A stretch of 64,000 bases of DNA, taken from an uncultured Lachnospiraceae bacterium (GTDB lineage Bacteria > Bacillota > Clostridia > Lachnospirales > Anaerotignaceae). Positions 1,722 through 23,741 of this stretch are shown here, one piece after another (the stretch's first letter is position 1; the number at the start of each line of letters is the position of its first letter). The position numbers and the translations under genes were made by a program. Below the pieces are notes generated by a model. The model saw only the letters and a list, made by a program, of their open reading frames with translations. It was not told the origin of the DNA and searched no databases. The stretch is from positions 74 to 64,073 of the forward strand of contig CALWHO010000181.1 of NCBI GenBank assembly GCA_944380405.1, given 5' to 3'.

Positions 1722-1844
1722 ATATATTCCTCCTTTATTTTTTATTATAAAACGATACCATACAATATATTTAATATCTATATAAGTGACAAAAAACAGA
1801 TGAGTTGTATGGGTACAATATTTAGAATTGTAATAATACAATTT

Positions 1845-2145
1845 CGTCAAAGGCTCATTTCATTCAAGCCTTTGACGAGAAGACAGAAGTATAAAGCACA
1901 TGGTCAGCACTTTTCTTCGAAAAGTCAGCTTCGCTGACCCGCACATCTTTGTGGGTGCCAAGTTCCATCGGCTAAAAAGCCTTGAAACTCACTGTCGGCA
2001 TTTTCCTTTGGAAAACGGCTTTGCCGTCTTAGTTCGTCAGGTGCTTTGCTTTTACTCGTCGGAAGTGAATTCCGCCTGCGGATTCCATTTGGGAAACTCT
2101 TCGTTTCCCAAACCTTTCCGCTAACTAAATGTGATAAAAAATATT
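1845..2145 (+). repeat. E-family structured intergenic repeat, copy E1
   Basis: E1 is homologous to 4316-4511 (+) and to 23429-23711 (-). The shared right module is ctcgtcggaagtgaattccgcctgcggatt...gggaaactcttcgtttccc...cctttccgc. The shared left hairpin is tcaaaggc-tcatttcattcaa-gcctttga. Confidence 0.8.
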
Positions 2146-3553: not shown

Positions 3554-3655
3554 ATAAATCACCTCTTTTAATATTAGATTATAACACAAAAAACTTGACC
3601 ATGAATATTTTTGTAATTTTTGGAATAAAATTTTACAAAAGGGAGGCGTATATTT

Positions 3656-4045
3656 ATGGCTGAAAAAAACAAACAAATAAATGGCTCATTTAAAAACTAT
3701 ATTAAGGCTGCTTTAGCAGCATATATAATTACGGCAGTAGTGTTTATAGTGTCTGCAATTCTTCTTACATATGGCAAGGCAAATGAAGACACAATAAAAA
3801 TACTTTCTTTTGTATCAACATTTATAAGTGCCGCTGCTGCCGGATATATAACGGCATCAGGTATGGAAAAAAGAGGCATACTTTGGGGTGCATTAGGCGG
3901 ACTTATATATGCGGCAATACTTATGGCTATATTTTATATATTTGGCAAAAATACAGATTTTACTTCTGGTAAGGTTTTATGCCTTGTATTTTCACTTATA
4001 GGAGGAGCCTTAGGCGGTATTTTTGGAATTAACACCAAAAAATGA
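3656..4045 (+). CDS. small four-TM membrane protein (YrzE-like)
   Basis: The 129 aa protein has four hydrophobic segments and follows a GGGAGG RBS. It lies immediately upstream of the SCIFF pair. Confidence 0.65.
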   Translation: MAEKNKQINGSFKNYIKAALAAYIITAVVFIVSAILLTYGKANEDTIKILSFVSTFISAAAAGYITASGMEKRGILWGALGGLIYAAILMAIFYIFGKNTDFTSGKVLCLVFSLIGGALGGIFGINTKK

Positions 4046-4066
4046 CTTTTCAAAATCTTATATACA

Positions 4067-4075
4067 TGATATAAT
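4067..4075 (+). promoter_or_regulatory. candidate extended -10 (TGaTATAAT) upstream of scfA
   Basis: catGaTATAAT lies about 45 nt upstream of the scfA ATG. I saw no clear -35 box. Confidence 0.3.
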
Positions 4076-4117: not shown

Positions 4118-4258
4118 ATGAAACATGTTAAAACATTAAATACATGCATGCTTAAAAATACAATCGCTAAAGGCGGCTGCGGCGAATGCCAGACATCATG
4201 TCAGTCAGCTTGCAAAACATCATGTACTGTAGCAAACCAGGCATGTGAAAACAGATAA
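4118..4258 (+). CDS. scfA: SCIFF (six cysteines in forty-five residues) ranthipeptide precursor, 46 aa
   Basis: This gene is not in the ORF track because it is under 60 aa. My hand translation is MKHVKTLNTCMLKNTIAKGGCGECQTSCQSACKTSCTVANQACENR. It has an AAAGGAGGA RBS, matches the GGCGECQTSCQSACKTSC signature, and sits upstream of the cognate radical SAM gene. Confidence 0.9.
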   Translation: MKHVKTLNTCMLKNTIAKGGCGECQTSCQSACKTSCTVANQACENR

Positions 4259-4290
4259 TTTCTGTTTAAGTGATTAAGCTTGTTTAAGAC

Positions 4291-4313
4291 GGGTGCAGAA
4301 AGCTTCTGCACCT
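4291..4313 (+). terminator. hairpin HP-L (ggtgcagaa-agc-ttctgcacc), proximal copy of a duplicated hairpin
   Basis: A perfect 9 bp stem lies 33 nt after the scfA stop and is followed only by tatttta. It is a near-duplicate of the hairpin at 4514-4533. Confidence 0.5.
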
Positions 4314-4315
4314 AT

Positions 4316-4511
4316 TTTAGGCAAAATCAGGATTTTGCCTAGGTTACTGGCGGTATAAAAAGAAAGTTCCTGCGGCAATATCTGCCTTGAAACTTTCTTT
4401 TTTCCTCGACGGAAGTCAATTCCGTCTGCGGATTACAATAAGGAACCTCTTTGGTTCCCTATACCTTCCAGCTGTTTTATTTTTTTAAAATTATATTTGT
4501 TTTGAAGGTAT
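4316..4511 (+). repeat. E-family structured intergenic repeat, copy E2 (short variant)
   Basis: E2 shares with E1 and E3 the motif ggtataaaa, the stem agaaagtt/aactttct, and the module cctcgacggaagtcaattccgtctgcggatt...ggaacc-tcttt-ggttcc...ccttcc. Confidence 0.75.
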
Positions 4512-4513
4512 GG

Positions 4514-4544
4514 GGTGCAGATGTATCTGCACCTGAATTTTTTT
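4514..4544 (+). terminator. hairpin HP-R (ggtgcagat-gt-atctgcacc) plus T-run; attenuator/terminator between scfA and scfB
   Basis: A perfect 9 bp stem is followed by tgaattttttt and lies 37 nt upstream of the scfB ATG. Confidence 0.55.
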
Positions 4545-4580
4545 GTAACGAAGTTTTTTTGATTTGGAAAGGAGAACATC

Positions 4581-5948
4581 ATGATCCATAAATTTAGTAT
4601 GAATGGCGTTAATGTTGTTATGGACGTAAATAGCGGTGCTGTTCATGTGGTGGATGATATTATATACGACCTTGCAGATGCATTTGAAAACATGAGCGAG
4701 GCAGAAATTATAAATAAATTTTCAGACAAGTATTCTGAAGAAGAAATAAAAGAAGCCGTTTCTGAAATGAAAGAGCTTAAAGATAATGGCATGCTTTTTA
4801 CAGAAGACGAGTATGAAAACGTACTTGATATGGTAGGCAAAAGACAGCCAGTTGTAAAGGCGCTTTGCCTTCATATTGCCCATGACTGTAACTTAAAATG
4901 CAGATACTGTTTTGCAGAAGAAGGCGAATACCATGGTCACAGAAGCCTTATGAGTGCCAAGGTAGGAAAGGCTGCCATAGATTTTATAATCAAAAACAGC
5001 GGCTCAAGAAGAAACCTTGAAGTTGACTTCTTTGGCGGTGAGCCTTTAATGAATTTTGAAGTAGTTAAGGAAATTGTGGAATACGCAAGAGAGGAAGAAG
5101 TTAAATACGGCAAAAACTTCCGTTTCACAATTACTACAAACGGTATACTCCTTGATGACGAAATTCAGGACTACATAAATAAAAACATGCACAACGTAGT
5201 TATAAGCCTTGACGGTAGAAAAGAAGTAAACGACAGAATGCGTCCAAGAGCTGGAGGACAGGGCAGCTATGACGTTATAGTGCCTAAGTTTATAAAGCTT
5301 GCTGAAAGCAGAAATCAGACAGACTATTACATAAGAGGAACATTTACAAGACATAACCTTGATTTTTCAAAAGACGTTCTTCATATGGCAGATTTAGGTT
5401 TTAAACAGATTTCAGTTGAGCCAGTTGTAGGCGAAGAAACAGAAGACTATACAATAAGAGAAGAAGATCTTCCAAAGGTTTACGAAGAATATGAAAAGCT
5501 TGCATGTGAGCTTTATGAAAGACATAAAGAAGGCGGTAAGAGAGATTTTAATTTCTTCCACTTTATGATTGACCTTTCAGGCGGTCCATGTGTGGCTAAA
5601 AGACTTGTAGGCTGTGGCAGTGGTACAGAATATCTTGCCGTAACTCCAGAAGGCGACCTTTATCCATGTCATCAGTTTGTAGGTCTTGATGACTTCAAAA
5701 TGGGTACAGTTTTTGACGGCGTAGAAAGAATGGATATACGTGAAGAATTTGAAAAATGCAACGTATATGCTAAAGAGGACTGCAAAAAATGCTGGTGCAG
5801 ATTCTACTGCAGTGGCGGCTGTGCAGCAAATGCATATCAGCTTAACGGCGATATATTAAAGCCTTATAAGCTTAGCTGTGATTTACAGAAAAAACGTGTT
5901 GAATGTGCAATTATGATTAAGGCAAAGGAATTTCAGGAGGAAAACTAA
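4581..5948 (+). CDS. scfB: SCIFF radical SAM maturase (thioether cross-link forming, SPASM domain)
   Basis: The 455 aa protein has the CNLKCRYC radical SAM motif and a C-terminal Cys-rich SPASM region (CGSG...CHQF...CKKCWCRFYCSGGC). It is adjacent to scfA. Confidence 0.9.
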   Translation: MIHKFSMNGVNVVMDVNSGAVHVVDDIIYDLADAFENMSEAEIINKFSDKYSEEEIKEAVSEMKELKDNGMLFTEDEYENVLDMVGKRQPVVKALCLHIAHDCNLKCRYCFAEEGEYHGHRSLMSAKVGKAAIDFIIKNSGSRRNLEVDFFGGEPLMNFEVVKEIVEYAREEEVKYGKNFRFTITTNGILLDDEIQDYINKNMHNVVISLDGRKEVNDRMRPRAGGQGSYDVIVPKFIKLAESRNQTDYYIRGTFTRHNLDFSKDVLHMADLGFKQISVEPVVGEETEDYTIREEDLPKVYEEYEKLACELYERHKEGGKRDFNFFHFMIDLSGGPCVAKRLVGCGSGTEYLAVTPEGDLYPCHQFVGLDDFKMGTVFDGVERMDIREEFEKCNVYAKEDCKKCWCRFYCSGGCAANAYQLNGDILKPYKLSCDLQKKRVECAIMIKAKEFQEEN

Positions 5949-15983: not shown

Positions 15984-16016
15984 AAAAGAGAGGGCATAAG
16001 TCCTCTTTTTTTTTAT
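15984..16016 (+). terminator. intrinsic terminator after the SLOG gene
   Basis: The stem agagg/cctct has G-U and A-U extensions and is followed by a T run of about 10. Confidence 0.6.
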
Positions 16017-16021
16017 TTCTT

Positions 16022-16226
16022 GGCAAGGATTATAAATACTTTATTTTAAAAAGTATTTGCGAGAGGGCCCATCTCAGAGTTGCGAAGCCCGAAGTGCCCT
16101 CTCGTGCTCTCCCATCTTGGGCGACGCTTTTCGTATGTGTACGGCTCTTGCCATTTACAAAATAATATTTAAATTCTTTTTTACAAAAAAATAAACCCAT
16201 CAGCCATGAACAACAAAAGGCGTGGC
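16022..16226. repeat. F2 structured repeat, unit A
   Basis: The unit reads ggcaagNaYtataaat...aaaagtatttgcgagagggccc...gccctctcg...cttgggcgacgcttttcgtatgtgtacggctcttgcc...cccatcagccatgaacaacaaaaggcgtggc. It is nearly identical to unit C. Confidence 0.85.
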
Positions 16227-16270
16227 TTACTTCTTTTCTCTCTTACCCTTGAAAAAAGTTCTTATTTCTC

Positions 16271-16600
16271 GGTAAGAACTATAAATTCTATATTTTACAA
16301 AAGTATTTGCGAGAGGGCCCATCAATGCACCCGACGAACAAGGGCGGCAAAGCCGGTTTGCGAAGCAAAATGCTGACAGGGAGCCCCGAAGCCCTGACCC
16401 CCTCTCGCGCTCTCCCATCTTGGGCGACGCTTTTCGTATGTGTACGGCTCTTGCCCTTTACAAAATAAATTCTTTTTAACTTTACTTTAAATAAAAAATA
16501 ACCCACTATCCACGAAATACAAAAGGCGTGGCCATAGGGTTGGGGTTCAAGGGGAAGGGACACGGCCTTCGCAACTACGAGTTCTCCCTTCCCCTTGGAG
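16271..16600. repeat. F2 structured repeat, unit B, with inserted sub-module M and a G-rich hairpin extension
   Basis: It has the same framework as units A and C. The apex of the first hairpin is replaced by cccgacgaacaagggcggcaaagccggtttgcgaagcaaaatgctgacaggg. It is followed by the 12 bp stem aaggggaaggga/tcccttcccctt (16549-16596). Confidence 0.85.
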
Positions 16601-16707
16601 AAAACTTTATTGCCATTTATAAAAGCCAACTTCTCGTCGGCTTCTTCCTAAAGGAAGAAGGTCGGCGACCGTAAGCCAAATCTCTCCAACAAAACTCTCC
16701 ACTCCTC

Positions 16708-16980
16708 GGCAAGTACTATAAATCCTCTGTTTTACAAAAGTATTTGCGAGAGGGCCCATCTCAGAGTTGCGAAGCCCGAAGTGCCCTCTCGCGCTCTCCC
16801 ATCTTGGGCGACGCTTTTCGTATGTGTACGGCTCTTGCCCTTTACAAAATAATATTTAAATTCTTGTTTACAAAAAAATAAACCCATCAGCCATGAACAA
16901 CAAAAGGCGTGGCAAACAGGTTGGGTTTTAAGGGGAAAGAGCACAGCCTTCGCATACTTCGAGCGTCCCTTCCCCTTGAA
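16708..16980. repeat. F2 structured repeat, unit C, with the G-rich hairpin extension
   Basis: 16729-16913 is nearly identical to unit A. The extension at 16930-16977 is homologous to 16549-16596. Confidence 0.85.
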
Positions 16981-17007
16981 ATAAACTCTTTTCAAATTTC
17001 CATTAAT

Positions 17008-17048
17008 AAAAACATATCCCACCAGCCATGAATAACAAAAGGCGTGGC
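17008..17048. repeat. F2 partial unit D (terminal hairpin only)
   Basis: cccaccagccatgaataacaaaaggcgtggc matches the 3' end of units A-C. Confidence 0.7.
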
Positions 17049-17051
17049 AAA

Positions 17052-17080
17052 TAAAAAGCTGCCCCTCTGGACAGCCTTTC
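17052..17080 (-). terminator. intrinsic terminator of the dnaI-like gene
   Basis: On the minus strand the hairpin gctgtcc-aga-gggcagc is followed by TTTTT. Confidence 0.55.
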
Positions 17081-17082
17081 TT

Positions 17083-18066
17083 TTATCCTCTGAATTTTTT
17101 AAGTATCCTTATGTCGCTTCCTACAAACTTAAGTATCCTGTACTCACCCATAATACGGCTTGATACTCTTTCGCCGTATTTTGCCGCCAAATCCTCCAGT
17201 GTAAAATTGGTGGATATTATAACAGGCTTTTTGTCTATGCTTCTTGTGTTAATGATGTTGAAAAGTGCAGAAACAGTAAATGAAGTTGAAAACTCTGTTC
17301 CAAGGTCGTCTATAATAAGTAAGTCAGCAGAAGCGATGTCCTCCATGCAGTCGGAAAACTCTTTTTCCTCATCACCGAAACGCTCTTTTTCTAATTCCTT
17401 AAAAAGCTGTGACGCTGTTACATACATAACAGTAAAGCCTTTTTTAACAACTTCTTTTGCTATGGCACCACAAAGATATGTCTTGCCAAGACCAGGGTTG
17501 CCGTAAAAAAGCAGATTGCCGCTGTCTTTGCCCATGTTTTGAGCAAACTTTAAGCATGTGTTATATATTTTTTCTATATTTTTTCTATATGACATGCCAA
17601 AATCATTTTTTTCGTCACTGTAGTAAGAAAAATCGAAATTTTCAAATGTTTCGTACTTTCTTCCTACACCTGACATGTTGTATGCCGTATCCATAAGAAG
17701 CTGTGCAAAGCAGCTGCACATTTTGCCGTTAACAAAGCCAGTATCAGAGCATTTTTCACATTCGTACTTAATTTTAAGTTCGTCTTCGTCAATGTTATTT
17801 TCTTTTAAAAGCTCTTTTTTCCTGTTAATAAGAATGTCTTTCTCCTGCTGAAACGCCTCATTAGCGTTTTGGCTGTTGTCAGGTGAAAGAGCAGCTTTTT
17901 TTGCAGCCTCTATGCCAAGTATGTTTATTTTTCTGTCTATGTCTTCAATTTCAGGCACTTTTTTATAAACCTCGTCACGCCTTTGGTGCATCTGCCTTTG
18001 GGCGTTCATTCTTTTCTGGTCCATAAGTGAAAGTATTTTTTTGTATATAGCCAAACGACTTTCCAT
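17083..18066 (-). CDS. DnaI/DnaC-type helicase-loader ATPase
   Basis: It has an N-terminal Zn-ribbon-like CEKCSDTGF..GKMCSC, Walker A (GNPGLGKT) and Walker B (LLIIDDLG). Its ATG overlaps the stop of the upstream DnaD-domain gene (TAATG). Confidence 0.8.
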   Translation of the reverse strand: MESRLAIYKKILSLMDQKRMNAQRQMHQRRDEVYKKVPEIEDIDRKINILGIEAAKKAALSPDNSQNANEAFQQEKDILINRKKELLKENNIDEDELKIKYECEKCSDTGFVNGKMCSCFAQLLMDTAYNMSGVGRKYETFENFDFSYYSDEKNDFGMSYRKNIEKIYNTCLKFAQNMGKDSGNLLFYGNPGLGKTYLCGAIAKEVVKKGFTVMYVTASQLFKELEKERFGDEEKEFSDCMEDIASADLLIIDDLGTEFSTSFTVSALFNIINTRSIDKKPVIISTNFTLEDLAAKYGERVSSRIMGEYRILKFVGSDIRILKKFRG

Positions 18067-23395: not shown

Positions 23396-23427
23396 AAAAA
23401 GAACCTCCACTTTTGGAGGTTCTTTTT
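23396..23427 (-). terminator. distal copy of the duplicated pyrG terminator hairpin, with full U-tract
   Basis: aaaaagaacctcc-actttt-ggaggttcttttt. On the minus strand the stem is followed by TTTTT. Confidence 0.65.
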
Positions 23428-23428
23428 A

Positions 23429-23711
23429 AAGCAGTAGAAAAAATAGTTTTCACACCATTTTACTAATGCGGAAAGGCTTGGGAAACGAAGAGTTTCCCAA
23501 ATTTAATCCGCAGTAAAGAACCCGACGAACAAGGGCAGCACAGCTGTTTTGCGTAAGCAAAATTCCGACGGAATTCACTTCCGACGAGGAAAAACGACAA
23601 GTTTCTAGGCATAAATGCCTATGAAACTTACGTTTTATACCTATGTCTCTCGGCAAAGACTTGAATGTAATGAGTCTTTGCCGAAGGGTAGTGGACATCG
23701 TCCACACCCTC
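23429..23711 (-). repeat. E-family structured intergenic repeat, copy E3 (carries sub-module M)
   Basis: The reverse complement aligns with E1 and E2 at three points: the hairpin gcaaagac-tcattacattcaa-gtctttgc, the motif ggtataaaa, and the module cctcgtcggaagtgaattccgtc[insert]tgcggatt...gggaaactcttcgtttccc..cctttccgc. Confidence 0.8.
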
Positions 23712-23739
23712 AAAGAACCTCCGCTTTGGGAGGTTCTTT
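23712..23739 (-). terminator. proximal copy of the duplicated pyrG terminator hairpin, with weak U-tract
   Basis: aaagaacctcc-gctttg-ggaggttcttt starts 2 nt after the pyrG stop. It is identical to 23398-23425 at 26 of 28 positions. Confidence 0.55.
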
Positions 23740-23741
23740 AA

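Follow-up and report, generated by a model that had tools for sequence, protein, structure and literature searches.

What placed 199 nt of non-coding sequence, flanked by two hairpins with the same stem, between the genes for a small peptide and its maturase? The question is raised by the scfA-scfB operon in a 64-kb stretch of DNA from an uncultured Lachnospiraceae bacterium (64,000 nt of contig CALWHO010000181.1, hereafter the window). In this operon, scfA codes for the SCIFF precursor peptide and scfB for a radical-SAM SCIFF maturase. Our answer, to which we assign a probability of about 0.72, is that the insert, named E2, is an element that landed on a host hairpin and duplicated this hairpin as a whole. 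The features of the locus are as follows.

4118-4258, plus strand: scfA, gene of the 46-amino-acid SCIFF precursor peptide, the upstream host gene (from the open reading frame list)
4291-4313, plus strand: left host-hairpin copy, containing HP-L, GGGTGCAGA-AAGCT-TCTGCACCT, read directly
4314-4512, plus strand: E2 body, a 199-nt decayed element of the interior type called class A here, without the 5' terminal hairpin module
4513-4534, plus strand: right host-hairpin copy, containing HP-R, GGGTGCAGA-TGTA-TCTGCACCT, read directly
4535-4545, plus strand: T-run of the original attenuator/terminator, GAATTTTTTTG
4581-5948, plus strand: scfB, gene of the 455-amino-acid radical-SAM SCIFF maturase, the downstream host gene

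The scfA-scfB spacer and its empty allele in relatives

The spacer between the two genes (4259-4580, 322 nt) holds the 199-nt insert between two perfect 9-bp hairpins, HP-L (ggtgcagaa-agc-ttctgcacc, 4292-4312) and HP-R (ggtgcagat-gt-atctgcacc, 4514-4533), which were read directly where the original prediction had placed them. The stem core that it described as shared is indeed common to both (arms GGTGCAGA/TCTGCACC), but the common block extends one base further on each side (G+GGTGCAGA...TCTGCACC+T), giving a repeat of 23 nt on the left and 22 nt on the right. The loop regions are unlike, with AAGCT in the left copy and TGTA in the right one. As had also been noted, a long T-run (GAATTTTTTT) follows the distal hairpin only; the left copy has lost its T-run and continues with TATTTTA. 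HP-R together with GAATTTTTTT is the sole site in the spacer that scores as a predicted terminator. The left copy retains the upstream host flank and the right copy the downstream host flank, which matches the TCTGCACCC-AA(A/C)TTTTTGTG of relatives.

Relatives of the host carry the corresponding empty site. In L119 and L120-L123 (numbers with L denote the loci collected for comparison), where scfB is 87-88% identical to that of the window, the spacer measures 127-135 nt, contains no insert and shows one hairpin with the same stem, followed by a T-run. The empty site reads ...AGG GGTGCAGA TTAAG TCTGCACC CAAATTTTTGTG in L119 and ...AGG GGTGCAGA TGGTATG TCTGCACC CAACTTTTTGTG in L122. L260 (80% identity) likewise has a single hairpin with a T-run, with a different stem. 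Two metagenome contigs of the same species (L117, L118) have the identical filled 322-nt spacer, and their identical scfA gene is annotated with Pfam SCIFF. Two hairpins without the element were seen in none of the relatives examined.

Directly 3' of the stem, both window copies have a T (CACC-T) where the relatives have a C. This derived base, common to both, indicates that the two copies descend from one hairpin of this lineage. The stem is identical in all four hairpins (HP-L, HP-R, L119 and L122) and all four loops differ. With scfB differing by 12-13% and with loop and flanks diverged, this suggests that the stem sequence itself may be under constraint; HP-L and HP-R would thus share their stem and differ in their loops because constraint acts on the stem and leaves the loop free to vary. 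The top base pair, which had been described as a compensated change, is apparently better read as loop divergence, since this position is unpaired in the relatives with an empty site. Taken together, the element was inserted into the single scfA-scfB attenuator/terminator hairpin, which now stands on both sides of the insert. The bracketing hairpins thus come from the host site, as originally proposed.

A second case lies downstream of pyrG.

23399-23740, minus strand: pyrG copy of the element; body 23429-23712, with a 5' hairpin module and a nested insertion of ~55 nt
23713-23740 (proximal) and 23399-23428 (distal, with A/T runs), minus strand: hairpins of the pyrG copy, AAAGAACCTCC-loop-GGAGGTTCTTT, with different loops

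The same architecture with a completely different hairpin, which had been claimed for this site, was thus found again. The flank-to-flank alignment scores 23 at pyrG and 12 at E2, where the loops differ, compared with a shuffled maximum of 11.5. A scan of the 64-kb window for perfect stems of at least 7 bp returned 110 hairpins, and the only two stem-sharing pairs at a distance of 80-500 nt are those around E2 and the pyrG copy. Relatives whose pyrG is 93% and 88% identical to that of the window lack the element; the window's pyrG is itself 85% identical to that of Anaerotignum faecicola.

A family of small elements and its footprint

The body of E2 can be divided into the following parts.

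4319-4340, plus strand: P1 hairpin, AGGCAAAATC-AG-GATTTTGCCT
4357-4403, plus strand: P2 long helix, AAAAAGAAAGTTCC...GAAACTTTCTTTTT
4405-4426, plus strand: invariant core hairpin, CTCGACGGAAGTCAATTCCGTC, 22 nt, also in the pyrG copy, in a third window copy (E1) and in a GC-rich sister class
4427-4472, plus strand: P4 domain, TGCGGATT...hairpin GGAACC/GGTTCC...CCTTCCAGC, comprising two helices of the helix model
4497-4512, plus strand: degenerate 3' terminal inverted repeat, TTTGTTTTGAAGGTATG, with the family consensus TTTTTGAC(A/G)GTCTG

E2 is alignable with 13 copies from other genomes, and positions 4322-4469 show 79% identity with the copies in L101 and L004. At the position of P1, other copies have TCGTCAAAATCAGGATTTTGACGA, with changes on both arms, and both-sided changes affect 10 of the 17 pairs of the P2 helix. 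The core hairpin has three matches in the window, compared with 0 expected. The 3' repeat of E2 lies at +86 from the core, which is the distance of the 3' terminus in full-length copies. The only open reading frames within E1 and E2 are short, lack conservation and are interrupted by indels, leaving no coding capacity. E2 is what remains of a non-autonomous mobile DNA element that is small, non-coding and present in many copies, with a terminal inverted repeat at each end. E2 has lost its 5' terminus and is therefore probably fixed, with no remaining mobility. The original prediction located E2 correctly between the hairpins and in the direction of the operon; the element is not intact, however, and co-orientation is no rule of the family.

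The class A interior, compared over 14 copies, has 37 predicted pairs, with 94.9% of cells paired and very few G-U pairs. Both-sided changes occur in 15 of the 37 pairs, compared with 7.6 ± 1.5 in shuffles (0/500 reach the observed value); 42 cells show changes on both sides, and slid controls collapse. Such nearly pure Watson-Crick helices fit DNA hairpins at least as well as RNA. We read them as features at the level of the DNA or the element rather than as host regulatory RNA, because G-U pairs are rare, the orientation of copies is random and the footprint follows the termini.

Further copies were collected from species-representative genomes, searched with the core motif, and from metagenomes, searched with the 5' module; the window's own genome is not among the species-representative loci. 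The invariant core (CTCGNCGGAAGTNAATTCCGNC) was found at at least 116 loci in species-representative genomes, comprising Anaerotignum, uncultured Clostridia and many Oscillospiraceae, and the 5' module at at least 120 metagenome loci. In full-length class A copies, the 5' end ((T)CAGGGTGTCGA-AAAAG-TCGACACCCTG) is the terminal repeat folded back as a hairpin. The 5' terminus reads CAGGGTGTCGAAAAAG and the 3' end TTTTTGAC(A/G)GTCTG(A), also given as CTTTTTGAC(A/G)GTCTG. As terminal inverted repeats, the 5' end (T)CAGGGTGTCGAAAAA corresponds to the reverse complement of the 3' end, (T)CAGACCGTC-AAAAAA, or CAGGGTGTCAAAAA in L101. Elements at bracketed sites measure 148-306 nt and have no coding capacity.

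Bracketing by site-specific duplicates of a hairpin was also found in L008, L017, L031, L094 and L101, and likewise for copies read on the opposite strand (e.g. L164, L236). Among the matches listed, 39 of 110 testable copies have a direct repeat beginning 0-3 nt from the 3' terminus, and 31 further unique insertion sites were obtained from public genomes and metagenomes after adding reverse-oriented copies and removing duplicates. At these 31 sites, the flanking direct repeats are 20-34 nt long and each represents one complete, site-specific stem-loop; many pairs are 100% identical, and such repeats flank the elements of L216, L227, L231, L237, L238 and L249. The stem-loop energies range from about -2 to -20 kcal/mol, with most below -10. 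Most duplications start with A and end with T, and the target hairpins mostly have an A-rich tract upstream and a T-rich tract downstream, like bidirectional terminators. Many targets have an AG...CT foot, and the element's own 5' hairpin has a CAGG...CCTG foot. Across the family, what is duplicated is always a single entire stem-loop (20-34 nt), irrespective of how long it is and of its sequence. Together with the empty sites, these independent insertions bear out the long target duplication of a whole host hairpin proposed from the window, including the expectation that relatives would show a single hairpin and other copies their own hairpin duplicates.

Interiors of at least four unrelated kinds are enclosed by the same termini: class A (210-293 nt), a type of 150 nt, and the types represented by L171 and L109. 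The footprint therefore goes with the termini and not with the interior. Copies are oriented at random with respect to neighbouring genes, 25 being co-directional with them and 21 opposite, with another 17 located between convergent and 10 between divergent genes, as expected of a DNA transposon landing on a near-palindromic target. An orientation bias as a sign of RNA function was thus not found, and the orientation of T-runs proved uninformative, since most targets are flanked by A/T on both sides. Overall, the family is large and partly active.

Some individual loci deserve mention. The 5' terminal hairpin module occurs alone, in a terminator-like form, at L143:8450-8500 (AAGGGTGTCGAAAAAGTCGACACCCTG followed by TTTTT) and on the minus strand of L145 at ~530-570; such solo modules could be remnants or excision footprints. 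L139 and L146 have the same left flank and element as L131 but another right flank, that of L146 being the right flank of L004. This would reflect either recombination between copies or metagenome assemblies that are chimeric at the repeat. At L041:5879-7082, in a metagenome-assembled genome of Acidobacteriota, the core motif occurs five times with four intervals of 323 nt; this very GC-rich tandem array is remote from the Clostridia, the source of every other core match.

How a whole hairpin might be duplicated, and competing explanations

We propose that the target would adopt its hairpin form, either as an extruded cruciform or within DNA that is briefly single-stranded, and that two strand transfers would then take place at its two feet, one on each strand. 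Gap repair would then copy the whole stem-loop. With strand transfer at the feet, the length of the duplication would track the hairpin and not a fixed number of base pairs. The enzyme would be supplied in trans; a transposase with a DDE/RNase-H fold is a guess. The similarity between the foot of the element's 5' hairpin and the AG...CT feet of the targets may hint that ends and targets are read in the same way. The outer A- and T-tracts would stay only with the outer hairpin arms. Transcription entering from either side would run past the nearer hairpin and through the element and end at the farther one. A terminator would thus be left to each neighbouring gene, the element would ride as cargo in the 3' untranslated region (3' UTR), and terminators would be safe landing sites. 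At scfA-scfB, HP-R with its T-run would act as a working attenuator, and HP-L, followed by UAUUUUA, would be weak at most. The additional 200 nt and second hairpin between precursor and maturase genes may shift the scfA:scfB expression ratio.

If the footprint is real, it would mark out mobile DNA of a kind that reads hairpins by their shape and duplicates them. Such a repeat family could saturate the terminators of gut Clostridia (Anaerotignum relatives and Oscillospiraceae) with transcription units unbroken, and tandem terminators and new 3'-UTR cargo would arise from it naturally. The predicted equality of duplication length and stem-loop length would offer a handle on a transposase that reads DNA structure. 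On the practical side, the elements cause contigs to be split and rejoined (some flanks were chimeric), make intergenic spacers longer and can pass for regulatory RNAs. A broader proposal is that transposition here follows a so far undescribed mode and targets DNA secondary structure rather than sequence, that both feet are attacked with the duplication equalling the structure, and that the GC-rich sister class is a second output of the same or related machinery. We offer this only tentatively and would put it short of even odds. If true, structure targeting would let an element enter terminators without destroying them.

Several known systems share parts of this behaviour. Described MITEs (transposable elements of the miniature inverted-repeat type) generate short duplications of fixed length (2-9 bp), whereas the duplication of the E2 family is one whole target stem-loop of 20-34 nt, and no parent insertion sequence was identified. 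In other respects the E2 family resembles MITE-type repeats such as Correia elements, RUP and bcr1 (reviewed in PMC10969869), its members being small (150-310 nt), multi-copy, intergenic and highly folded, with inverted and direct repeats and nested insertions. Short non-coding sequence, inverted repeats, a duplication with its empty site and dispersed copies (three in 64 kb) were all found; the family shows every structural hallmark of MITEs except an identified parent.

Unusually long duplications also occur in the IS1202 group (IS1202, ISSeq2 and others, some from Firmicutes), where they measure 16-28 bp and no target was recognised (PMC10132070). The IS1202 family is characterised by outer ends of the form 5'-TGT...ACA-3', an internal second transposase-binding site and a TnsB-like DDE transposase (PMC10132070). 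In this group, the duplication length is given as one value per insertion sequence and a hairpin target is not reported (PMC10132070). Membership of the E2 family was rejected on account of its CAG...CTG ends compared with TGT/ACA.

Structure-specific extragenic hairpin targets are also used by IS1397 and ISKpn1. These insert into the loops of repetitive extragenic palindromic (REP, palindromic unit) hairpins with a duplication of 3-4 bp; the E2 family, in contrast, uses both feet and duplicates the whole hairpin, although one of its loci (L004) does look loop-inserted. Class C group II introns, elements of at least 600 nt that comprise a ribozyme and a reverse transcriptase, insert after terminator hairpins without a duplication. 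The resemblance to them raised in the original prediction holds for target choice only, the E2 family having 150-310 nt, inverted repeats and a duplication. A group II intron relic was rejected, because the 199-nt body lacks an open reading frame and ribozyme domains such as domain V, has no Rfam intron match, and inverted repeats and a duplication are present. When Cas1-Cas2 duplicates a CRISPR repeat or a casposon integrates, the integrase acts at the two edges of a partly palindromic unit, on a different strand at each, and a full copy of the unit thereby comes to lie on either side of the insert. These systems act on one specific leader-proximal repeat (14-15 bp in casposons) and not on any terminator-like hairpin, and there is no Cas1 evidence for the E2 family. 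IS1634 and IS1549, autonomous insertion sequences of 1.5-2 kb, produce variable and very long duplications, a likeness most relevant to the GC-rich sister class (39-130 nt); we know of no relation of their duplication ends to hairpins or gene ends. The literature searched contains no description of an insertion sequence or MITE that duplicates a terminator or a hairpin-sized target; given its incomplete coverage, this is weak negative evidence that the whole-hairpin footprint is unlike any described system.

Among the alternatives, the family could represent a SINE-like retroelement (resembling short interspersed elements), with a structured RNA copied into nicked DNA by a reverse transcriptase and a variable second nick. 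This would accommodate duplications that vary in length (from 20-34 nt for class A to 39-130 nt for the sister class), the 5' truncation of E1 and E2 with an intact duplication around E2, and the conserved, folded interior. We consider it unlikely in view of the terminal inverted repeats, and because the duplication ends coincide with hairpin feet instead of being scattered. Moreover, there is no A-tail and no reverse transcriptase among the genes near copies, the orientation is random with respect to transcription, and the helices lack the G-U pairs typical of RNA-selected structure.

Seen from the operon, E2 and its hairpins might instead form a host cis-regulatory RNA, an attenuator or riboswitch-like scfB leader, in which the core senses a signal and the 3' arm of HP-L and the 5' arm of HP-R pair as an antiterminator. 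The 261-nt RNA from HP-L to HP-R has a much better fold than shuffled versions (z = -9), and the L arms are paired with the R arms in its minimum-energy structure. In addition, the core helices covary. A promoter-like site lies ahead of scfA (4047-4075) and none is predicted within the scfA-scfB spacer, so that scfB depends on read-through. The pairing between L and R arms is no evidence of design, however, because any palindrome duplicated in direct order can pair in this way. The insert is absent from sister species with the same operon and hairpin, the same element occurs at unrelated loci in both orientations, and termini and footprint remain the same with unrelated interiors; overall, a regulatory RNA is quite improbable. 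A known RNA family was rejected as well: Rfam 15 at gathering thresholds gave 0 matches in the whole 64-kb window, and in E-value mode (up to 10) it returned only noise for 4200-4650, the best hit scoring 21 bits against a gathering score of 105. E2 might nevertheless have been co-opted secondarily at scfA-scfB.

It is very improbable that the flanking repeats are recombination sites of the att or attC type, used by a circular element and a site-specific recombinase. The repeats are hairpins like attC sites, and those of the sister class rebuild gene ends as phage att sites do. The hairpin is different at every site, though, which would force an arriving element to bring a site matched to each target; in addition, both flanking copies are whole host hairpins rather than hybrids, and no recombinase gene is associated with the copies examined. 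Local slippage that doubled the hairpin before the element landed between the copies is effectively refuted, although tandem terminators do occur in bacteria, since no relative has two hairpins without the element, the arrangement recurs at the 31 further sites with repeats within 0-3 nt of the termini, and hairpin pairs in the window stand only around element copies.

An insertion that duplicates the whole host hairpin thus remains our preferred explanation, and the following points weigh against it. Palindromes of terminator size extrude poorly in duplex DNA, and the attack on cruciform feet is purely what we infer. No autonomous copy was recognised, as no pair of termini lies more than 310 nt apart in the ~2 Mb of fetched loci, and no transposase emerged, since no protein family recurs beside copies and clusters of neighbouring open reading frames contain only housekeeping genes. 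In plasmids and phages, the full element had no blastn match and the terminus alone only random matches, and the 5' module is absent from viral contigs; an origin from plasmids or phages was rejected on these results. About two thirds of the 5'-module copies showed no clean duplication in the scan, some of them being reverse-oriented, some truncated, some solo modules and some with chimeric flanks. At L004:4838-5100 (and also in L163 and L206), the element lies within a hairpin loop (AAAAGGCACAGAA ... TTCTGTGCCTTTT) with only ~4 nt (GAAT) duplicated. E1 and E2 lack the 5' terminus, yet the duplication around E2 is intact, which requires a later 27-nt deletion of the terminal hairpin. At pyrG, the terminators of the relatives differ or are missing, so that this site demonstrates a lineage-specific insertion only and not a single ancestral hairpin. 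Finally, a purely selfish DNA model does not explain the conserved interior with its 15/37 covarying pairs.

The GC-rich sister class and further repeats in the window

The sister class was found at Oscillospiraceae loci (within L001-L116) and has only the 22-nt core hairpin in common with class A. On both sides of its elements stand direct repeats, nearly identical and 39-130 nt long; each includes a gene terminus, either the stop codon with the last 40-100 nt or the ATG with ~22 codons, which leaves the adjoining gene intact. The ends of these duplications lie close to a start or stop codon and often precisely on it. The repeat copy abutting the intact gene often begins exactly at the stop codon. 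Examples are found at the following positions.

L029:2531-2898: sister-class element
L056:5548-5917: sister-class element
L073:6190-6470: sister-class element
L071, minus strand, 3740-4030: sister-class element

In about half of the 55 copies analysed, the 3' end of the element carries 10-21 nt that are the reverse complement of the intact target sequence spanning the point of insertion. An empty and a filled allele with identical LepA protein were found upstream of lepA, at L252:1140-1300 and at L251/L253:930-1300, respectively. The insertion has supplied the filled allele with the element's core, an anti-target segment (GGCGTGGATTTACC) and a new ribosome-binding site (TAAGGAGG), and the opening 64 nt of the open reading frame are now present twice; the upstream copy of this start forms a 27-codon mini-reading frame that ends inside the element. 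A pre-existing inverted repeat was rejected as the source of the anti-target segment, as it is absent from the empty allele in L252. A simple staggered cut fails to explain this structure, and under the broader proposal above the sister class would point to templated synthesis during insertion.

A short repeat (...TGTCATTGCGA(A/G)G...(hairpin)...GTGGCAATCCGT...) recurs near sister-class elements of Oscillospiraceae at these positions.

L071, minus strand, 3640-3700: short repeat
L073:6105-6150: short repeat
L252:1095-1145: short repeat

The third copy in the window and the modules nested within elements are located as follows.

~1843-2125, plus strand: E1, third copy, with two nested modules of ~60 nt and without the 5' terminal module
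1895-1955 and 1990-2045: nested modules in E1
23505-23560: nested module in the pyrG copy
L027, L035, L050, L106, L136, L152, L176, L196 and L215: further loci with nested modules

E1 has a hairpin on its right side only (2158-2187), and at the corresponding site in L120/L121 synteny is broken on the far side. The nested modules, 55-65 nt long and exemplified by ...TCAGCACTTTGCTTCGCAAAG...CCCCGTTTCTTCGGGG... and ...CACCGCAAGAGATGCGG...GCATTTGCGGAGCAAATG..., are present in the loops of class A helices in some copies only and look like a second layer of tiny mobile units. A non-coding stretch of the window at 16000-17100 is dense in repeats, with several families of 55-230-nt direct repeats, and may be an array of small nested modules. 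One of its repeat units (16324-16362) shows 85% identity to the module nested in the pyrG copy (23515-23553).

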